From: a virus
Taxonomy: Duplodnaviria > Caudoviricetes
DNA length: 64,000 nt
Strand: one strand, 5' to 3'
Virus record (IMG/VR): IMGVR_UViG_3300035520_000885
Coordinates: 1-64,000 of that record
In this document: in pieces, positions 19,990 to 40,900 of the stretch
How the letters are laid out: each line of letters opens with the position of its first letter
Position numbering within the stretch: the first letter of the stretch is position 1
Notes under the pieces: generated by a model
What the model was told of the DNA's origin: nothing
The model's input: only the letters and a program-made list of their open reading frames with translations
Database searches by the model: none
Program-made: the position numbers and the translations under genes

Positions 19990-20356
19990 CAGTCTCCTCC
20001 TTCCTCATATCAAATTGTTTCCAGTGTGCTAAAAAGTGATTTTTCTTATTTTCCCATTAGCTCTTTTTCTATAGTTAAAAAGACCATATGTATAAAAATG
20101 CTATGTGAATCATGTTCACAGTAGTAGTTCATTTATTTATACTGAAATTTGTCATAAATACCTAAGTATAGGTAAACTCTTAACTGTGGGAGAATTACGT
20201 CTATTTTTATTTCTATTAGAAAAAGAGATGATGACAGAAGATAAGAAAATTCCTGATGAGAAAGCGAGCGCTTTTCTCATTTTAACCACAAGAAGACATT
20301 AGATTAAATCTCTCTATGGCTAAAGAGTAATTTTTATTTTCGAGGAGGAGATTTCT

Positions 20357-23300
20357 TTGTTTGAAATTGTGAATTGGAATTATACGAATGAATCGTATAA
20401 GCAAGTTATTAAACGGGATGGTCGCAGTGTAGACTTCAATCCCGATAAAATTCGTATGGCTATCATTAAGGCTTTTAATGAGGTAGACCATACGGAAACT
20501 CCTTCTACGCGAGCAGCGAAGACCGCCTTCAATATCTCTAAGAAGATTTCTAAGAAGGCCAATAAGCGTTCTTATAGCGTGGAAGAAATCCAGGATATGG
20601 TTATCTATGCGCTGATGGCAACAACTCGTAAGGATGTCGCATTGGCGTATTCTAATTATAGACTTGGGCGTAAAGTAATCCGTGAAGTCCATGGTAACAC
20701 CACGGACAAAAGTATCATGGAGATCGTAGAAGGAAAGAGTGATTACTGGAATGGTGAAAATTCTAATAAGAATCCAAGACTAAATTCTACTATTCGTGAT
20801 TACATTGCGGGAGAGACTTCTAAAGATATCAGTCGACGTATCTTACTTCCACACGATATTATGGAAGGTCATGATGAAGGAATTCTTCACTTTCATGACT
20901 CCGACTATTATATCCAGAAGATAGCCAATTGTTCATTGATTAATCTCGAAGATATGCTGCAAAATGGCACAGTAATTAGTGAGGTTATGATTGAGAAACC
21001 ACATTCGTTCTCCACCGCTTGTAATATTGCAACCCAAATCATCGCACAGGTTGCAAGCTCTCAATATGGTGGACAGTCAATCTCTCTTGCGCATCTTGCT
21101 CCATTTGTCGATGTTTCAAGACAGTCGATTAGGAAAGATGTGATTTCTGAGAGAGAAAGAAATGGTGACGACCTTGATGAGTCAAAGATTGAAGCGACTG
21201 TACAAAGTAGACTTCAAAAAGAAGTTAGGAAGGGTATTCAATGTATTCAGTATCAGGTTACGACCCTAATGACAACTAATGGTCAGGCACCTTTCTTAAC
21301 TGTGTTCATGTACCTTGGGGAGGCTAAGAATGAACAAGAAAAGGAAGACCTTGCGATGCTTATTCGGGAGGTACTTGAGCAACGATACCAGGGTGTAAAG
21401 AATGATCAAGGCATATTCGTCAGTCCCTCTTTCCCGAAGTTGATTTATGTCACTGAGCCGGATAATATTTATGCTGGCTCCAAATATTTTGATTTGACTC
21501 TTTTGGCTCTGAAGTGCTCTGCTAAGAGAATAACTCCTGACTATATCTCTGAGAAGAAGATGAAGGAGAATAAAGAAGGAAACTGCTTCCCTGTGATGGG
21601 TTGTGTCACCGGTACTTCTGCGATTACTTATAAATATCGCGGGGTTATGTATATCGAAAACATGGAAGAAATGTGGGATAGACTCAGCCGTGATTTTGGA
21701 AAGATTGAGCAAGTTCCCGATAGTGGAAACTACTATATTGATATCGACCATACTCAGATTTACGATTCTGTGAAAGGTTTCGTAAATGTGAGCCGAATGG
21801 TTTGCAATCGTATGGAGTCTCCGAATACTTGGTACAATATCCGGTTGAAGAATGGTAAGATGATTACATGTACACATGACCATCCTCTCCCTGTAACTGG
21901 TAAGGGTCGGACGTATGCAGAGAATTTAGAGCTTGGAGATAAAATCCCGACTGCAAATATCCAGCCCGTAGAAGTCACTGAGAGTGTATCTGAGGAAGAT
22001 GCATATCAGTGGGGTTATTATATTGCAGAGAATGCCTGCAAGCTTGAGTATGATATTTCTCACATGAATCAGGTCTTTGACTTCTATGAGAAATATATGA
22101 GAAACGACATCCGTAAGAATGTCTATCACATCCCGTCCATCATTTTCAAGACTGATGTAAATACCAGACTTGCGTTCTTGGCTGGCATGATTGATGCATT
22201 CGGTACTATTGAGATTGACGAAGAGAATAATGTGAAGTTCTCTATCGACGTCTACAACCATACCACTTCGGATGAACTCATGATGCTTCTAACTTCTGTT
22301 GGAATTCCTTCCGGTCTCTCTGATGATAAGAATAAGTATCGGATTGATGGTACTCCGAAGTACTATTCTATCAATGCAGAAGTAACCAAGGAGCTCTATG
22401 AGAAGCTGGTAGTATCCAACACTCTTGGCGGAGAGTATAACTTTTATAAGGCTAATGCGTCTGAACTCACCACAGATAGTGAAATCATCTCCATTAAGAC
22501 CAGCACAGTTGGTGGATATTGGAGCTATGATGTTACCACAGAGTCTGATCATTTCGATGTTTCTGGCATTTATTCTCATAACTGCCGCTCTGCTCTGGCG
22601 CCCTGGAAGGATGAGAATGGAAACTACAAATTCTATGGCAGATTCAATCAGGGTGTGGTTACAATCAATCTTCCTGATATCGCTCTGTCTTCCGGGGGAG
22701 ATTTCAAGAAGTTCTGGGAAATCTTTGATGAGCGTACTGAGCTTTGTCACAAGGCGCTTCAGTATCGACACAAGAGACTGAAAGGAACATCTGTCGACGT
22801 CGCCCCTATCATGTGGAAATACGGAGCTCTTGCTAGACTAAAAGATGGTGATACCATTGATAGTTTACTCTATGGTGGCTATTCTTCCATTTCTCTTGGC
22901 TATGCAGGACTCTATGAATGTGTAAAATATATGACTGGCCATAGTCATGCTGACGAAGGACCTGGTACTGAATTTGGCTTGGAGGTTATGAAAGCTCTCA
23001 ATGCCAAATGTAATCAATGGAAAGAAGCCGAGAATATCGGTTACAGTTTATATGGAACTCCTATTGAATCTACGACTGAGAAATTTGCACTTGCCCTTCG
23101 TAGAAGATTTGGAGTAATCCCGGGAATTACTGATAAGGACTACATCACAAACTCTTATCACGTTCCGGTATTTGAGGAAGTTGACGCTTTCACAAAATTA
23201 AAGATTGAGTCAATCTTCCAAGACCTCAGCACTGGCGGTGCCGTTTCTTATATTGAAACTCCCGACATGCAAAACAACATTGATTCCATGTTGGAAGTCT

Positions 23301-25152
23301 TGCAGTACATGTACGAAAACATCATGTATGCAGAATTCAATACTAAAAGCGACTATTGCAAATGCTGTGGTTATGACGGTGAAATTCAACTGGTTACGGA
23401 TCCGGACACTGGAAAGTATATCTGGAAGTGTCCTAAGTGTGGAAACACAGATCCGAAACAGATGAACGTCACACGCCGCACTTGTGGTGAAGCCCTGTAC
23501 CTATAGCCACAATGCAAAACGATAGAAATTCAAGGAAACCCCGTTCCTGTGCCCAGGCACAAGACAGGCAATCTTGAGCTAAGTTCTCGTATTTATTCAA
23601 TTTGCAAAAAATGAGGTAAAATTGTATGAGTAAAGATTGGAAATGTGATTTTTGTGGAAGACCGTTAACACGACAGATAAAAGCTTATGGACATATATAT
23701 TGTCCAAAGCACTATAGGCAATTCAAAAAATATGGAAAAGTGCTAGATAATAATCCACGTACTATATATGACAAAAATGAGATTCATGTGAAAGGAAAAA
23801 TCGCTTTTGTAGATTTATACAATAAGAATTGTGAAGTCATAGCACAAGCGATAATTGATACAGAGGATATCCCTAAGATCAAATATACAAAGTGGAAACT
23901 TTCTGGAAGTGGATATGCAATGAATACGCCAAAATTCAAGGGTGGTTCTAAACACATGTCCAGAGTCATTCTGGGAGTCGACACGTTTGTAGATCATATT
24001 AACCATAATACATTGGATAATAGGAAAAAGAATCTTAGAGTTGTATCAAAATCCCAGAATCAAATGAATGTCAACTATAGAGGCGTGGATAATAGAGGAG
24101 ACGGTAGATGGATTGCTCGAATAAAGAAAAATGGAAAAATGGTCTATCTTGGAACTTATGTATTTGAGGAAGAAGCTTATTTTGCTAGATGGTATGCAGA
24201 GAAGCTTGTCTTTAAACAATACAGATTTCCGAAACCAAAACCTGTCATTCTTCCAGATAGAGAAAAAATGATAAAGAAATACGTACGAGAAAAAGTGCAA
24301 CGACTATAATTATCGGCGATGCTCAACCAAATTAATGGAGAGATCGTAAGGAATAGTCTACTCCCCGAGGGAAACCTCAACTGACCTAGAAATATCTCGA
24401 AAGAGAGGGTAATAAGGTACATTGGTACGGCGTCCAATGGATGGAACCAAGGAAGACTTGGTGATATTCATGATAGAGTCCTTCACATTTGTGATAAGGA
24501 TTCGGACATCTATAATAACGGAGAAGAGATTATCGACCCCGTCGTAAAAACTACTATGTTTGATTATACTCCTGATGACTATAAAATGCTTTCTACTACT
24601 AAGAAGAAAAATGCTATGCGGTATTCTTCTTTACGCGGTATGGATGTATCTAATGGTACTGGAGTTGGAGTCGCTCTGTTTACTCAGGGTTGTCGGTTCC
24701 ATTGTCCTAAGTGCTTCAATCAGAATCTTTGGGACTTTGAGGGCGGGCATTCCTGGGAAGCTCGGAATGATGTTCAGGTTCTGAATATGTTAGCAGACTC
24801 TCATGTGCAACGATTCTCTATCCTGGGTGGTGAGCCTCTGGAGCCTGAGAATCTGGAGAATCTGTATACTTTGATTCAGAAAATCAAATCTGTACATCCT
24901 CATATTAAGATTTGGCTGTATACTGGAAATACAACGGAGAAGATTTTCGATCCTAAGAATGAAGTGAGTCGTGAGAATACACTTCGTAAGTGGATCTGGA
25001 GAACTGTCGATATCGTTGTGGATGGACAGTATATTGATGCACAGCGCGATCCTAGTTTGGATTATCGTGGAAGTGCAAATCAACGCATCATTGATGTAAA
25101 GAAATCTATCGAGAGTGGTCATATTATCACGATTGATTCTTTTCGTATGTAA
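20357..25152 (+). CDS. nrdD: Class III ribonucleotide reductase, spliced and fused in frame to its activase: join(20357..23488,24418..25152), with an intein
   Basis: ATP cone 'VIKRDG...FNPDKI', 'NCSL', 'YGGQS', MG/CRS thiyl Cys, CxxC...CxxC. RRTCG|YIG is restored by splicing, and there is no stop between exon 2 and the NrdG domain. Confidence 0.85.
21602..22582 (+). mobile_element. Intein (327 aa) with LAGLIDADG-like endonuclease remnant
   Basis: Starts CVTGTS, block B 'TCTHDHP', 'FLAGMIDAFG', ends 'YDVTT...SGIYSHN' followed by Cys. Removal restores 'PVMG-CRS'. Confidence 0.92.
23489..24417 (+). mobile_element. Group I intron in nrdD
   Basis: 5' exon UGUGGU pairs with IGS GCCACA (U-G at the splice site). 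'uguac' can pair across the 3' splice site (g|uaca). Core 'aatcttgagctaag', 'caacgactata', 'gaatagtcta'; ends in G. Confidence 0.9.
23626..24309 (+). CDS. Intron-encoded HNH homing endonuclease with AP2-like domain
   Basis: 'VDHINHNTLDNRKKNLR' HNH motif and 'RWIARI...YLGTY..EEEA' AP2-like segment. Confidence 0.88.
   Translation: MSKDWKCDFCGRPLTRQIKAYGHIYCPKHYRQFKKYGKVLDNNPRTIYDKNEIHVKGKIAFVDLYNKNCEVIAQAIIDTEDIPKIKYTKWKLSGSGYAMNTPKFKGGSKHMSRVILGVDTFVDHINHNTLDNRKKNLRVVSKSQNQMNVNYRGVDNRGDGRWIARIKKNGKMVYLGTYVFEEEAYFARWYAEKLVFKQYRFPKPKPVILPDREKMIKKYVREKVQRL
24556..25152 (+). CDS. nrdG: Anaerobic RNR activating enzyme domain (radical SAM); C-terminal part of the spliced fusion
   Basis: 'NGTGVGVALFTQGCRFHCPKCFN' CxxxCxxC, 'LGGEP', 'DG.Y' and 'RGSANQR'. 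Confidence 0.9.
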   Translation: MFDYTPDDYKMLSTTKKKNAMRYSSLRGMDVSNGTGVGVALFTQGCRFHCPKCFNQNLWDFEGGHSWEARNDVQVLNMLADSHVQRFSILGGEPLEPENLENLYTLIQKIKSVHPHIKIWLYTGNTTEKIFDPKNEVSRENTLRKWIWRTVDIVVDGQYIDAQRDPSLDYRGSANQRIIDVKKSIESGHIITIDSFRM

Positions 25153-25177
25153 ATAACGGAAAGGCGGTAAACTACAA

Positions 25178-25390
25178 ATGCCCATCGTAGACTTTTGTTG
25201 TCATGCAACACTGTATGATGATTTGAATACCGGAAAATTCTATGCAAGACTTGGGAATTTCTCCAGAGCGACCACACAGTATGACACTCTAGACGAATTG
25301 AAATCTGCACTGAGAAGTGGAAAGTTTGAATACGATCCAAAATCACGTGGAGTTTCACTTTCACAATCTAGATTGCGTTACACAGATTAA
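25178..25390 (+). CDS. Hypothetical protein
   Basis: 70-aa ORF with AAGGCGG RBS, followed by a terminator at about 25403-25440. Confidence 0.5.
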   Translation: MPIVDFCCHATLYDDLNTGKFYARLGNFSRATTQYDTLDELKSALRSGKFEYDPKSRGVSLSQSRLRYTD

Positions 25391-25491
25391 TTTCTGTATA
25401 AGAGAAGAGAGAACTCTATTCTGAGTTCTCTCTTCTTTTTAATTAGAATACAAGATACAAAGTAATAATCTTTTATAAGGAGGATTATCTT

Positions 25492-26436
25492 ATGGAATTG
25501 CAAAAAATCGCAAAATTTGAACGGGTGAGCGAGAAGCTGTATAACCAGTTTGTGAAAGAGGCTGAGAACTCCACTGCACTGGTGAAGTACGGTGAGATTC
25601 AGCTTCCCCAGAGAGCTACCGAGGGGTCTGCTGGGTATGACTTTATCTGCACCGATTTCGTGGCTCTGAAGCCCAATGAGAGCGCTATCATTAATACCTT
25701 CGTAAAGGTATATATGGAACCCGGTTGGGCTCTGACTATCATTCCTCGCTCTGGCCTTGGTTTCAAGTATTTCGTGCGTCTGGCCAATACGATTGGTCTC
25801 ATTGATACGGACTACTATAACAATGAGAGCAACGAAGGTTGCATCATGGTTAAGATTCGTAATGAGGGTGAGAAGACTATGGTGCTGGAACCCGGTGATC
25901 GTTTCTGCCAGGGTATGCTGGTTCCGTATGGAATTACCTATGACGACGACGCCCATCAGAAGATGATTCGGGAAGGCGGCACTGGTTCTACTGGTACGAC
26001 TACTGAAATCCATGATAATAGCAAGGAGGATAGCAAAATGAGTGATACCGCTGCTAGTGGTGGGGTAAAGTCTCCTAACATAAAAAAGGTGAAAGTCTTT
26101 ATCTCCCAGCCGATGAATGGCAAGGAAAATGTGGAGATTAAGAAGGAGCGTCGGAATATTTTGGACAAGGCTGTCATTCCGAATCTGTATAGTTTCGTGA
26201 CTGACCACCACGACTACGATGCCATCGCTCTGGATGCTGCCGATACCATTTTTGATTTGGAAGATGGGACTCATGCCTTGGTCTATCTGGGTAAGTCTCT
26301 GGTGGAGATGGCTGACTGTGTCATGTGCTTCTTCCCGAAGAATTATGCAGACTATCGCGGTTGCAATATTGAGCACACCTGTGCTATTGCATATGATATG
26401 CCCATTATGTACTACGAGCCCGAGCTTCTGGGCTAA
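25492..26436 (+). CDS. dut: Trimeric dUTPase fused to a C-terminal NDT/DUF4406-like domain
   Basis: dUTPase motifs 'AGYD', 'PRSG', 'GLIDTDY', 'GDRFCQG', 'REGGTGSTG'; then 'KVFISQPMNG...RGCNIEH..A..Y.MPI'. Confidence 0.85.
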   Translation: MELQKIAKFERVSEKLYNQFVKEAENSTALVKYGEIQLPQRATEGSAGYDFICTDFVALKPNESAIINTFVKVYMEPGWALTIIPRSGLGFKYFVRLANTIGLIDTDYYNNESNEGCIMVKIRNEGEKTMVLEPGDRFCQGMLVPYGITYDDDAHQKMIREGGTGSTGTTTEIHDNSKEDSKMSDTAASGGVKSPNIKKVKVFISQPMNGKENVEIKKERRNILDKAVIPNLYSFVTDHHDYDAIALDAADTIFDLEDGTHALVYLGKSLVEMADCVMCFFPKNYADYRGCNIEHTCAIAYDMPIMYYEPELLG

Positions 26437-26483
26437 AGAAAAGAGAGTATCTGGAATTTCCAGATACTCTCTTTATTAACCGA

Positions 26484-37942: not shown

Positions 37943-40900
37943 ATGGCTGGAGTGAAAATAGACAAAGATTACGCTGTGGAGCACAGCCTATTTTTATCAG
38001 AGTGGAAAGCTCAAATGACAGAAACTCTCTTACGCATGCATCCTGATTGGGATGAAGGACTTATTGAAGAAACTCTCAATGAAGAGATTCGAAATAAAAT
38101 AATGGTTCCGATGGTGGAACTTGATAACAACTTTACAGGAGAGAGAAGACAATCCAATCTTCTGTCCGTATTCGACTGGTCACTAAAGAGAAAGCCAATC
38201 GTAGCGGGAAATGGTACTTTCTACAAGAATCAGCATGAAGCGGTTAATCCTATCGCAGACATGCTTGATGGATTTTTGTCAGAACGTAAAGCGATTAAAA
38301 GACGCATGTTCGACGTTGATGATCCAAATTCAGACCTCTACAAAGATCTGGATCGTGGTTAATTTTGCTGGCCACGTAACCTCTTTAATTGCGGGGACTT
38401 ATCATAATACACAATTACTAAGCTATCATAGCGATATGATAGTGGCGACGGGTAACTCCGAAGGTATAGTAACAAGATTGCGTATGGTATAATCCGCAGC
38501 CAAGACTCTCTACGAGAGTAAGGTTCAACGACTAGGGAAAGGCTATCTATAGATAGAACCGAGTAGGTCCAATCATAGGACGAAATGTAGGTGAGATAAT
38601 ATCAAGAATCCGAAGTGGGGGGCACTTTACAAGTGAAGATATAGTCTACAAGTATTAGGTTTTTTGCAGCAAAACCAAAAAATCCTTGCTAACTCCTATT
38701 ATGGAGCTAGCGGAATGCCACTGTCGGCATTCTATTCTCGATGGTCTGGACCTGCAGTTACAGGTACTGCTCAGAGCATCATTTCTACAACTAAAACCTT
38801 CTTTGAAGGTTTTCTGATGAATAACTACAAGTTCATAGATACAAATGAATGCTTTCATTTTATGAATCTTGTGCTAGAGCAGGACTATGAATTACCTTCG
38901 TGGATAGTTCCTGTGAGTGAGGATGAACTCTATGACCATATCGTCGATTTGTTCATGGATGAAGACCTCAAAGAAAAGAGTCGGAAATTCGTTCGTAAGT
39001 ATGTTAGGAATCTGAATGAGGAAGAGAGAACAAGAATCTTCTATAAGAATCAGATGATGGAATTTACACGGAGGCATCCTCATATCATACGTCTGTATGA
39101 AGACTTGTTTGCGGCAGTTAAAAATTACCCACTTGCGGATAAGGAAGAAGATATTCCTATATCCATGGCTGGTGATTTTACGGGAGAGCCAAAAGAACGA
39201 GTTAAGGCGTACAATGCGTTTGTGAATAAGGAAGGGTTCATCAATCCAAACGATCCTCCTGACTCCATTATCAATATTCTAAAAGAATTGAATGGATACT
39301 ATTCTACCTGTGTCTATATGCCATTCATGGCACTTGACAGAATTTATAGATTGAAGTATTTTTATAGAAAGACCGTTTGTATTGTGGATACTGACTCTAA
39401 TATTCTGGCGCTCGATCCATGGGTAGAGTTCTTTGAGGATGAAGTTCTACAAGGAAAGACGTATGGGAGAACCGATGAAGAAAACCACTTCATCATGGTC
39501 AATAGTCTTGCGTATTTCATCACCTCTGCAGTGTCTGATACATTGGATCAATATGGTAGACACTCCAATATACCTGACGAGTTTAGACCCCGTTTTAATA
39601 TGAAGAATGAGTTTGAAGTAAAGCTCATTAAAAACTTTTCTAATTGCGGGAAACTCTTGATAGACTATATATACCAAACTATAGTAGCAATATTATGGTG
39701 GCAATGGGTAATTCCAAAGGTATGGTAAAAAGTATATAGGTAAAGACAATCCGCAGCCAAGACTCAAAAATTGATTTAAATTCCTACAATATGAAAAATG
39801 AATACAGGAGGAATTTAAATGAAATTCAAAATTATACTTACTGAAAATGGCGAAAAAACTCACTATAAGATTAGTGACACAGGTATCGTTATTGATACAA
39901 ATACGGATACTATTGTGGAGCCATATGTATCACAAACCCGAAAATATAAAGGGGAAACTCTAAAAACGAAATCCCGATATTATGTCATAATTGAATATCC
40001 CGATGGAGAGAAGCATAGAAAGCAGCTAGCGAGATGGATGATGTTATCATTTCACTTTAGGAAAAAATCGGCCAAATACCAAGTTAATCATAAAGATGGT
40101 GACCCATCCAATAATAATTTATATAATCTTGAGTGGGTAACCAGACAAGAAAATATGAAACATGCTGCAGATAGCGATCTTCTTCCATATGGAGAGAATC
40201 ATCATAACTCAAAATACTCTGATGATTTGATTCACTCTATTTGTAAAGATATATCTGCAAAGAAGAGTAGGAAGTCAATAATAAAGAAGTACGGGGTGAA
40301 TGGGCAGCTTATTGATGACATTAGATCTGGGAGATCTCATAAGAAAATCAGTAAGCAGTATATAGATAAAGGGTTTGTGTATAAAAGTTTTGATAAGACA
40401 GAGTCTATCAAGACTGCTAAAAAAATTTGTAAGCTAATTGAGAAAGGCCTTACTAATAATGAAATTGTGCTACGTTTGGGATTGGAAAACGTGTGTCTTC
40501 CAAATGATATACGAAAGCATAGAGTGTATAAGTATATTAGTAAGGACTATAATTTTTGAGTAAGGTTCAACGACTAGGGAAAGGCTGTCTAGAAATAGAT
40601 AGAACTGAGTAGACCCAATTATAGGGTGAAATGTAGGTGAGATAATATCAATAATCCGAAATGGAAAGTATTGCATTTTTTGCAATAAAGATATAGTCTG
40701 TCCTCTATGGAGACATAGAGGTTTTAAAATACGTTTATTTCGACAAACTGGTTATTGGTAAGAAAAAGAAGCGTTACATTTCTCGTATTAAGCTTCGTGA
40801 AGGTAACCGAATGAAACCGTATAAGCCAGACGTAAAGGGCTTCGATTTTATGAAAGCTACTACTTCTCAGGCGGCAAAAGATTACTTCGATGTAATCGTA

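Follow-up and report, generated by a model that had tools for sequence, protein, structure and literature searches.

An in-frame nrdD-nrdG fusion carrying an intein and a group I intron in a phage class III ribonucleotide reductase locus

Class III ribonucleotide reductase (RNR) consists of the reductase NrdD and of its activase NrdG, and one locus of a gut phage raises the question of whether both can be encoded as a single chain. The locus lies at positions 20357-25152 of a 64,000-nt window, the first 64,000 positions of the IMG/VR virus record IMGVR_UViG_3300035520_000885 (Duplodnaviria; Caudoviricetes), a record of 114 kb with an estimated completeness of 47%. An initial annotation of this window, made from the letters alone, proposed that splicing of an intron joins NrdD to NrdG in one frame. 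Our analysis, which is based upon sequence comparison, indicates that the locus is a phage class III RNR gene in which nrdD appears to have lost its stop codon and to have been joined in frame to nrdG. The fusion of NrdD to NrdG at the DNA level is close to certain from the reading frame, and we consider it likely that a functional single-chain product is made.

The unspliced nrdD open reading frame (ORF) extends on the + strand, like all the features of the locus described here, from a TTG codon at 20357 to a stop codon at 23504-23506. Its Shine-Dalgarno (SD) site, GAGGAGGAG (20342-20350), is located 6 nt 5' of the TTG start and gives an anti-SD duplex of -11.6 kcal/mol. When positions 23489-24417 are removed, a single open frame connects the TTG at 20357 with the stop ending at 25152: exon 1 (20357-23488) provides 1044 codons, the last of which encode RRTCG, and exon 2 (24418-25149) provides 244 codons without any stop before the stop codon at 25150-25152. 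In the predicted mature mRNA, the NrdD frame thus continues uninterrupted into that of NrdG, and the order encoded is that of an ATP-cone and NrdD (split by a 327-residue intein), a linker of about 43 residues and NrdG. The sizes given in the initial annotation, 1288 residues for the precursor and 961 residues once the intein is subtracted, were both correct. The expectation that ORF callers would miss the fusion was also borne out, as the public gene call is the 198-residue ORF at 24556-25152 alone. The locus is an annotation trap: with an intein, an intron and no stop codon between the two genes, it is reported by gene callers as a truncated NrdD plus a 198-residue "NrdG".

The two exons are separated by a group I intron of 929 nt (23489-24417), identified from a partial Rfam match, a core located by hand and a junction that restores an NrdD motif. 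Past RRTCG, which ends with the T at 23488, the frame decays to EALYL and a stop codon, and it resumes at 24418 with YIGTASNGWNQGRLGDIHDRVLH. Each residue of the junction RRTCG|YIGTASNGWNQGRLGDIHDRVLH is matched in unfused NrdDs, as had been claimed for the joining of RRTCG to a normal NrdD C-terminus. P1 pairs TTGTGGT of the exon (23482-23488) with GCCACAA (23506-23512) and places a U.G pair at the splice site, the U preceding the 5' splice site; the last base of the intron is the terminal G at 24417. P3 (23520-23525 with 24310-24315), P7 (GACTA at 24302-24306 with TAGTC at 24354-24358) and P8 (24317-24324 with 24338-24346) were, like P1 and a GAAA-capped hairpin, located by hand, while P4-P6 (23530-23617) is covered by the partial Rfam Intron_gpI match. 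The U.G pair of P1, the P3, P7 and P8 pairings, the terminal G and the restored NrdD junction are hallmarks of group I introns, and the nrdD intron is predicted to be self-splicing. The string CAACGACTA, from J6/7 to P7, is common to this intron and to both introns of the DNA polymerase gene, two further group I introns of the window (38351-38669 and 40501-40720).

The NrdD part of the frame was identified with profile searches. The N-extein of exon 1 (20357-21601), which contains the ATP-cone and the N-terminal half of NrdD and ends with FPVMG, is recognised by the Pfam ATP-cone and NRDD profiles and matches positions 3-384 of NF006732 with 382.6 bits. The C-extein (22583-23488), which starts at the catalytic Cys, includes the Zn-ribbon cysteines and extends to the glycyl-radical Gly of RRTCG, matches positions 385-681 with 429.6 bits, and the summed score of both pieces exceeds the 657-bit cut-off of this equivalog. 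The Pfam domains found in the unspliced nrdD ORF are ATP-cone, NRDD (558.6 bits), Gly_radical, an intein splicing domain and a homing endonuclease. The C-extein aligns with residues 290-579 of T4 NrdD and with residues 400-697 of 9d3x, and it is 70% identical to the unfused NrdD P0013.

Between the two exteins is a 327-residue intein with a LAGLIDADG-type homing endonuclease (21602-22582, from CVTGTS to YSHN). Since the NF006732 match is contiguous from position 384 to 385 while it ends at 21601 and resumes at 22583, the limits of the intein are fixed. Cys1, the terminal HN and the +1 Cys are present (CVTGTS...YSHN|C), and matches were obtained to both splicing and endonuclease profiles: Intein_splicing scored 29.8 bits, under its Pfam cut-off of 35.8, Hom_end 27.3 bits, over its cut-off of 21.1, and TIGR01445, for the N-terminal region of inteins, 31 bits for a cut-off of 24.5. 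The intein is immediately 5' of the Cys aligned with Cys290 of T4 NrdD. The last residue of exon 1 is the equivalent of T4 Gly580 because it comes next after the residue aligned with T4 residue 579. Cys290 and Gly580 of T4 NrdD are the established thiyl and glycyl radical sites; in the present protein, the glycyl-radical Gly is Gly717 of the mature chain. Intron splicing restores the RxCGY motif (RRTCG|YIG), and the finger-loop Cys is present at the +1 position of the intein. Both radical sites therefore hold self-splicing elements, of a different kind at each, the intein directly before the Cys aligned with Cys290 and the intron directly after the codon equivalent to Gly580.

Exon 2 begins with the conserved NrdD C-terminus, YIGTASNGWNQGRLGDIHDRVLH (24418-24486), which shares 88-96% identity with the C-terminal ends of unfused NrdDs (P0001-P0025). 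It is followed by a stop-free linker of 43 codons, ICDKDSDIYNNGEE...STTKKKNA (24487-24615), where roughly 40 residues had been announced; the claim that the frame passes the NrdD C-terminus without a stop and crosses the linker into NrdG to end at 25152 was accurate. The first 8-12 or so residues of the linker match the acidic NrdD tail of relatives, and the linker exceeds the tail and gap of these relatives, taken together, by about 27 residues. Frame 0 is free of stops, while the other two frames contain 1 and 9. The codon score of the linker in frame 0 was 0.70-0.72 bit/codon, above that of 95% of the 43-codon windows within the real genes of this genome, and it was reached by none of the off-frame windows tested and by 0 of 876 intergenic windows. 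Open windows of 43 codons made up 5.5% of off-frame and 8.6% of intergenic windows in this genome. The score was high in both halves of the linker (0.66 bit/codon for 24487-24555), and sliding windows along the linker (24463-24613) had frame 0 as the highest. In the conserved C-terminus (24418-24448), frames 0 and 1 were about equal, with frame 2 always far lower. The gene-like codon usage of the linker, confined to frame 0, and the stops of the other frames make a hidden frameshift, or a stop lost in former spacer DNA, unlikely. Scans with Pfam and NCBIfam found no domain in the linker.

We also considered a 2-nt insertion that would have shifted an ancestral VLHL followed by two stops (CAT TTG TGA TAA, in the -1 frame at 24481-24492). 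This candidate was rejected because the tails of relatives extend 10-16 residues beyond VLH (HLDDIEYKGCDS, HIKDTEFQYEDNK) and resemble HICDKDSDIYNNGEE of frame 0, and because frame 0 has the best codon score throughout.

The linker leads into an NrdG activase domain (24616-25152; MRYSS..., GCRFHCPKC, GGEPL), and residues 67-244 of the exon-2 product make up a complete NrdG. TIGR02491 matched residues 69-228 with 137.8 bits for an equivalog cut-off of 126.1, and Pfam Fer4_12 matched with an E-value of 1e-36. The cysteines of the CX3CX2C motif (C92, C96 and C99) and the GGEPL residues G137-G138-E139-P140 were invariant or nearly so in two alignments (A1 and A2), and stand-alone homologues start exactly at M67 (ATG 24616, MRYSS). 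AlphaFold was run on the exon-2 product, the glycyl-radical Gly being in exon 1, with an alignment of 81 sequences. The predicted local distance difference test score (pLDDT) was above 90 for residues 67-240, below 50 for residues 1-47 and only moderate from there to residue 66; for the linker it was below 50-55. The model is consistent with a linker that serves as a flexible tether. A sequence search of a PDB copy retrieved no structure of NrdG or of an NrdD-NrdG complex.

A fusion found in a single metagenomic lineage could stem from an error in sequencing or assembly, or it could mark a decaying locus that was recently inactivated by the loss of a stop or by an indel. The Logan contig L092 (run SRR11794512) is 100% identical to positions 24164-26470 of the window, including the 3' splice site and the entire linker, so two assemblies made with different pipelines are identical across the linker, and the stop codon or frameshift between 24490 and 24615 that the initial annotation had named as its refutation is absent from both. 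L011, a JGI contig from a different metagenome, has 1 mismatch in 974 bases and begins at 24770. The fusion is not an assembly slip. A lesion would be in line with the stop codon that is present in 156 of 156 surveyed relatives, but no other frame gains coding signal, and no clear switch to another frame was seen in any sliding window, between 24418 and 24700. In addition, neither enzyme has lost a catalytic residue or motif, and the intein and intron core are intact as well. We therefore regard an artefact or a decaying locus as very improbable.

The 156 relatives come from two surveys (L012-L091 and L094-L173). The IMG/VR survey comprised 80 loci, and none of the 79 with a readable NrdG frame was fused; the genome survey comprised 80 loci, mostly of Bacillota, and none of the 77 readable ones was fused. 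Several tblastn matches to phages that span the NrdD C-terminus and NrdG looked fused, and all nine of those that were opened have stops. Word-based searches for long proteins containing NrdG gave no further fusion. When 1.8 billion representatives were searched exhaustively with phmmer, the best 150 matches included one true fusion, P0245, an unannotated protein of 903 residues. It is encoded on a phage-like contig of 34 kb (Logan SRR13001973), among neighbouring genes of prokaryotic type. P0245 has the same order of ATP-cone, NRDD/Gly_radical, short linker and Fer4_12, but its linker is of about 18 residues instead of 43, the NrdG Met is replaced by a Leu and there is no intein; as it is a single called ORF, it has no intron either. 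The NrdD of the present locus is 56% identical to that of fused P0245 and 70% identical to that of unfused P0013, which indicates that the two fusions are independent. The search for relatives with a continuous nrdD-nrdG ORF that had been recommended was thus answered by one independent fusion, whereas all of the readable viral and genome loci surveyed were unfused.

In relatives, the distance from the nrdD stop to the first nrdG codon is mostly -5 to +5 nt, and the canonical NrdG start codon is replaced by a codon for Leu, Ile or Val in many IMG/VR loci. This spacing and these substitutions suggest that nrdG translation is coupled to that of nrdD by termination and reinitiation in relatives. 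With such spacing, a small change is enough to fuse the two genes, and judging from these junctions the present fusion probably arose from a tightly coupled nrdD stop and nrdG start. Ordinary nrdD-nrdG operons of phages and Bacillota, such as those of L093 and Clostridioides phage ES-S-0173-01, have the same enzymes in the same order and share with the present locus the NrdD C-terminus RVLH with its acidic tail and the NrdG N-terminus MRYxxxR. They differ by a stop between the genes, an nrdG start within about 5 nt and an SD inside the NrdD tail, while the present locus lacks both this stop and this SD and has about 27 additional codons. The closest relative retrieved among unfused loci (L093, 70% identity over the C-extein) has a TAATG overlap and a GGAG in the NrdD tail.

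Other proteins in these searches join NrdG to mobile elements. In P0195, P0242 and P0173, each a single ORF, an HNH homing endonuclease runs in frame into an NrdG without its Met (...NRRGIGN-LRYATIK, ...KKRNQ-LRYAKIK); from their sequences, it seems that endonuclease genes insert immediately 5' of nrdG and become fused to it. P0298 is an NrdG homologue of 538 residues with an intein-type homing endonuclease domain, PF05203, so the activase gene can also host an intein.

Several observations weigh against a product made as one chain from the spliced message. The nrdD intron scores 22.7 bits (E 0.0033, model positions 60-138), short of the RF00028 gathering score of 50, and Rfam scans of its 3' part gave no match. 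The intron core is split by a 684-nt ORF, and the Rfam model copes poorly with such splits. We accepted the intron and its boundaries because of the pairings located by hand, the shared CAACGACTA and the restored NrdD motif. Megablast searches of phages, IMG/VR and metagenome contigs gave no close relative that spans the linker, L011 starting at 24770, and L092 may come from the same source sample as the window. The canonical NrdG Met codon at 24616 is kept, with two further in-frame ATGs upstream, and a promoter-like TTGTGA-16-TATAAT is found in the linker at 24489-24516, upstream of the three in-frame ATGs.

The last two of these features are those expected if the open frame is real but the working NrdG is a separate product, with translation starting internally at 24616, 24586 or 24556 and perhaps on a transcript from a promoter in the linker, the fusion being tolerated or a minor by-product. 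Internal initiation is the main rival reading: the NrdG start Met is retained, exactly at the canonical N-terminus where P0245 has a Leu, and the NrdG of the surveyed relatives is always a separate protein. However, most genes of this genome have an AGGAGG-type SD, with a median anti-SD energy of -8.45 kcal/mol, while the ATGs at 24556, 24586 and 24616 have energies of +0.4, +0.6 and -1.9 kcal/mol, respectively, which resemble the energies of internal Met codons. An SD is missing before all three ATGs, in agreement with the initial annotation. A Bacteroidales host, which would explain a missing SD, was rejected given the AGGAGG-type SDs of the genome and the closest cellular NrdGs, which belong to Bacillota; SD-dependent initiation fits with such likely hosts. 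Coupling by termination and reinitiation is impossible without a stop. Promoter-like sites were not enriched, with 21 found compared with 17.2 +/- 3.4 in shuffled sequence, and the part of the linker 5' of the first ATG (24487-24555) is gene-like, so it would be translated from nrdD anyway. We consider internal initiation as the source of the working NrdG to be unlikely.

A single precursor could also be cleaved within its disordered linker, by a protease of the host or of the phage, into an ordinary NrdD and a separate NrdG. The predicted lack of structure of the linker, with its low pLDDT over residues 1-47, and its excess of about 27 residues over the tail and gap of relatives would suit such a cleavage. 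On the other hand, neither protease sites nor self-cleaving elements were recognised in the linker, where the Pfam and NCBIfam scans were blank, and the linker of about 18 residues in P0245 argues that an uncut chain can work. We find cleavage of the linker quite unlikely, and a functional single chain remains our preferred reading.

That NrdD and NrdG are normally separate, as the initial annotation stated, is true in general, but the statement does not extend to the phage-like P0245 or to eukaryotic NrdDG proteins. NrdD and NrdG are encoded in a single ORF in fungi and oomycetes, including Schizosaccharomyces japonicus, Fusarium and Phytophthora (Lundin et al. 2010, PMC3019208), and they are fused in Trepomonas (PMC4967989). 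As described, the eukaryotic genes resemble the present one in having one ORF with NrdD followed by NrdG. They are nuclear genes acquired from bacteria, whose fusion has been explained as a means of expressing an operon in a eukaryote, whereas the present gene belongs to a phage of SD-using bacteria, has a separate origin and is additionally interrupted by an intein and by a group I intron. A limited literature search gave no report of an NrdD-NrdG fusion in a phage or a bacterium. We regard the present fusion as a rare, independently arisen form of an already known architecture, and its novelty was overrated initially because eukaryotic NrdDG had been described and P0245 was in the databases.

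Phage T4 also has an intron in nrdD (sunY) and a separate nrdG (PMC2988022). The T4 gene is, like the present one, a phage class III RNR gene with a group I intron that encodes a homing endonuclease (I-TevII) and, in T4, is self-splicing. Cys290 and Gly580 of the T4 protein align with the points at which the intein and the intron are inserted in the present nrdD. T4 differs by an intron endonuclease of the GIY-YIG type instead of HNH-AP2, by the absence of an intein and by its separate NrdG.

The endonuclease of the present intron is an HNH-AP2 homing endonuclease of 227 residues (23626-24309; Pfam HNH_3, 32.4 bits, and AP2), whose stop overlaps the 5' strand of P7 and whose ORF is preceded by an SD-like GAGG of -7.0 kcal/mol. 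The two introns of the DNA polymerase gene scored 44.5 and 33.9 bits with Rfam Intron_gpI, the higher score being that of the ORF-less one. A default Rfam scan reports no intron in the window because all of these scores are under the gathering score of 50. The sole match in the window to reach a gathering score, RF00630 (Pseudomonas sRNA P26; 59189-59247, 38.9 bits), looks like a match to a terminator-type hairpin. Downstream of the fusion, an ORF of 314 residues (25492-26436) with a strong SD has a dUTPase domain, recognised by Pfam on L092; it probably has an extra C-terminal domain, as it is about twice as long as the 146-residue dUTPase of L093.

We propose that the group I intron would self-splice from the mRNA, that a ribosome entering at the strong SD of nrdD would proceed in one pass to the end of NrdG, giving NrdD-linker-NrdG, and that intein excision would restore the MG|CRS finger loop and produce the chain of 961 residues. 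The radical-SAM [4Fe-4S] activase domain would start 67 residues past Gly717, and the tethered NrdG would cleave S-adenosylmethionine and take a hydrogen from Gly717, either of its own chain or of the partner in the NrdD dimer. From the spliced frame we infer that a fused polypeptide is made, that it is active and that NrdG can be synthesised only after splicing: activase and reductase would be made 1:1 because they are on a single chain, and NrdG would be made from spliced mRNA only because the unspliced frame stops at 23504-23506 and there is no SD-linked start before NrdG. The viability of such a fusion is supported elsewhere by P0245 and by eukaryotic NrdDG. In its strictest form, that of an obligately single-chain and self-activating class III RNR whose tethered activase would act stoichiometrically on its own dimer, with activase synthesis gated by self-splicing of an intron exactly at the glycyl-radical codon, the proposal is tentative and we hold it to be rather doubtful.

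The biological surprise is moderate because fused NrdDG is known in eukaryotes. The locus shows the ease with which tightly coupled genes, whose stop and start are within 5 nt, can be fused, and a natural fusion of the bacterial type with a 1:1 tether could be convenient for cryo-electron microscopy and electron paramagnetic resonance. If the strictest form of the proposal is true, the chain would offer a natural scaffold on which the long-sought complex of an activase and its glycyl radical enzyme could be solved, and RNA splicing would be a switch for radical-enzyme activation during infection.

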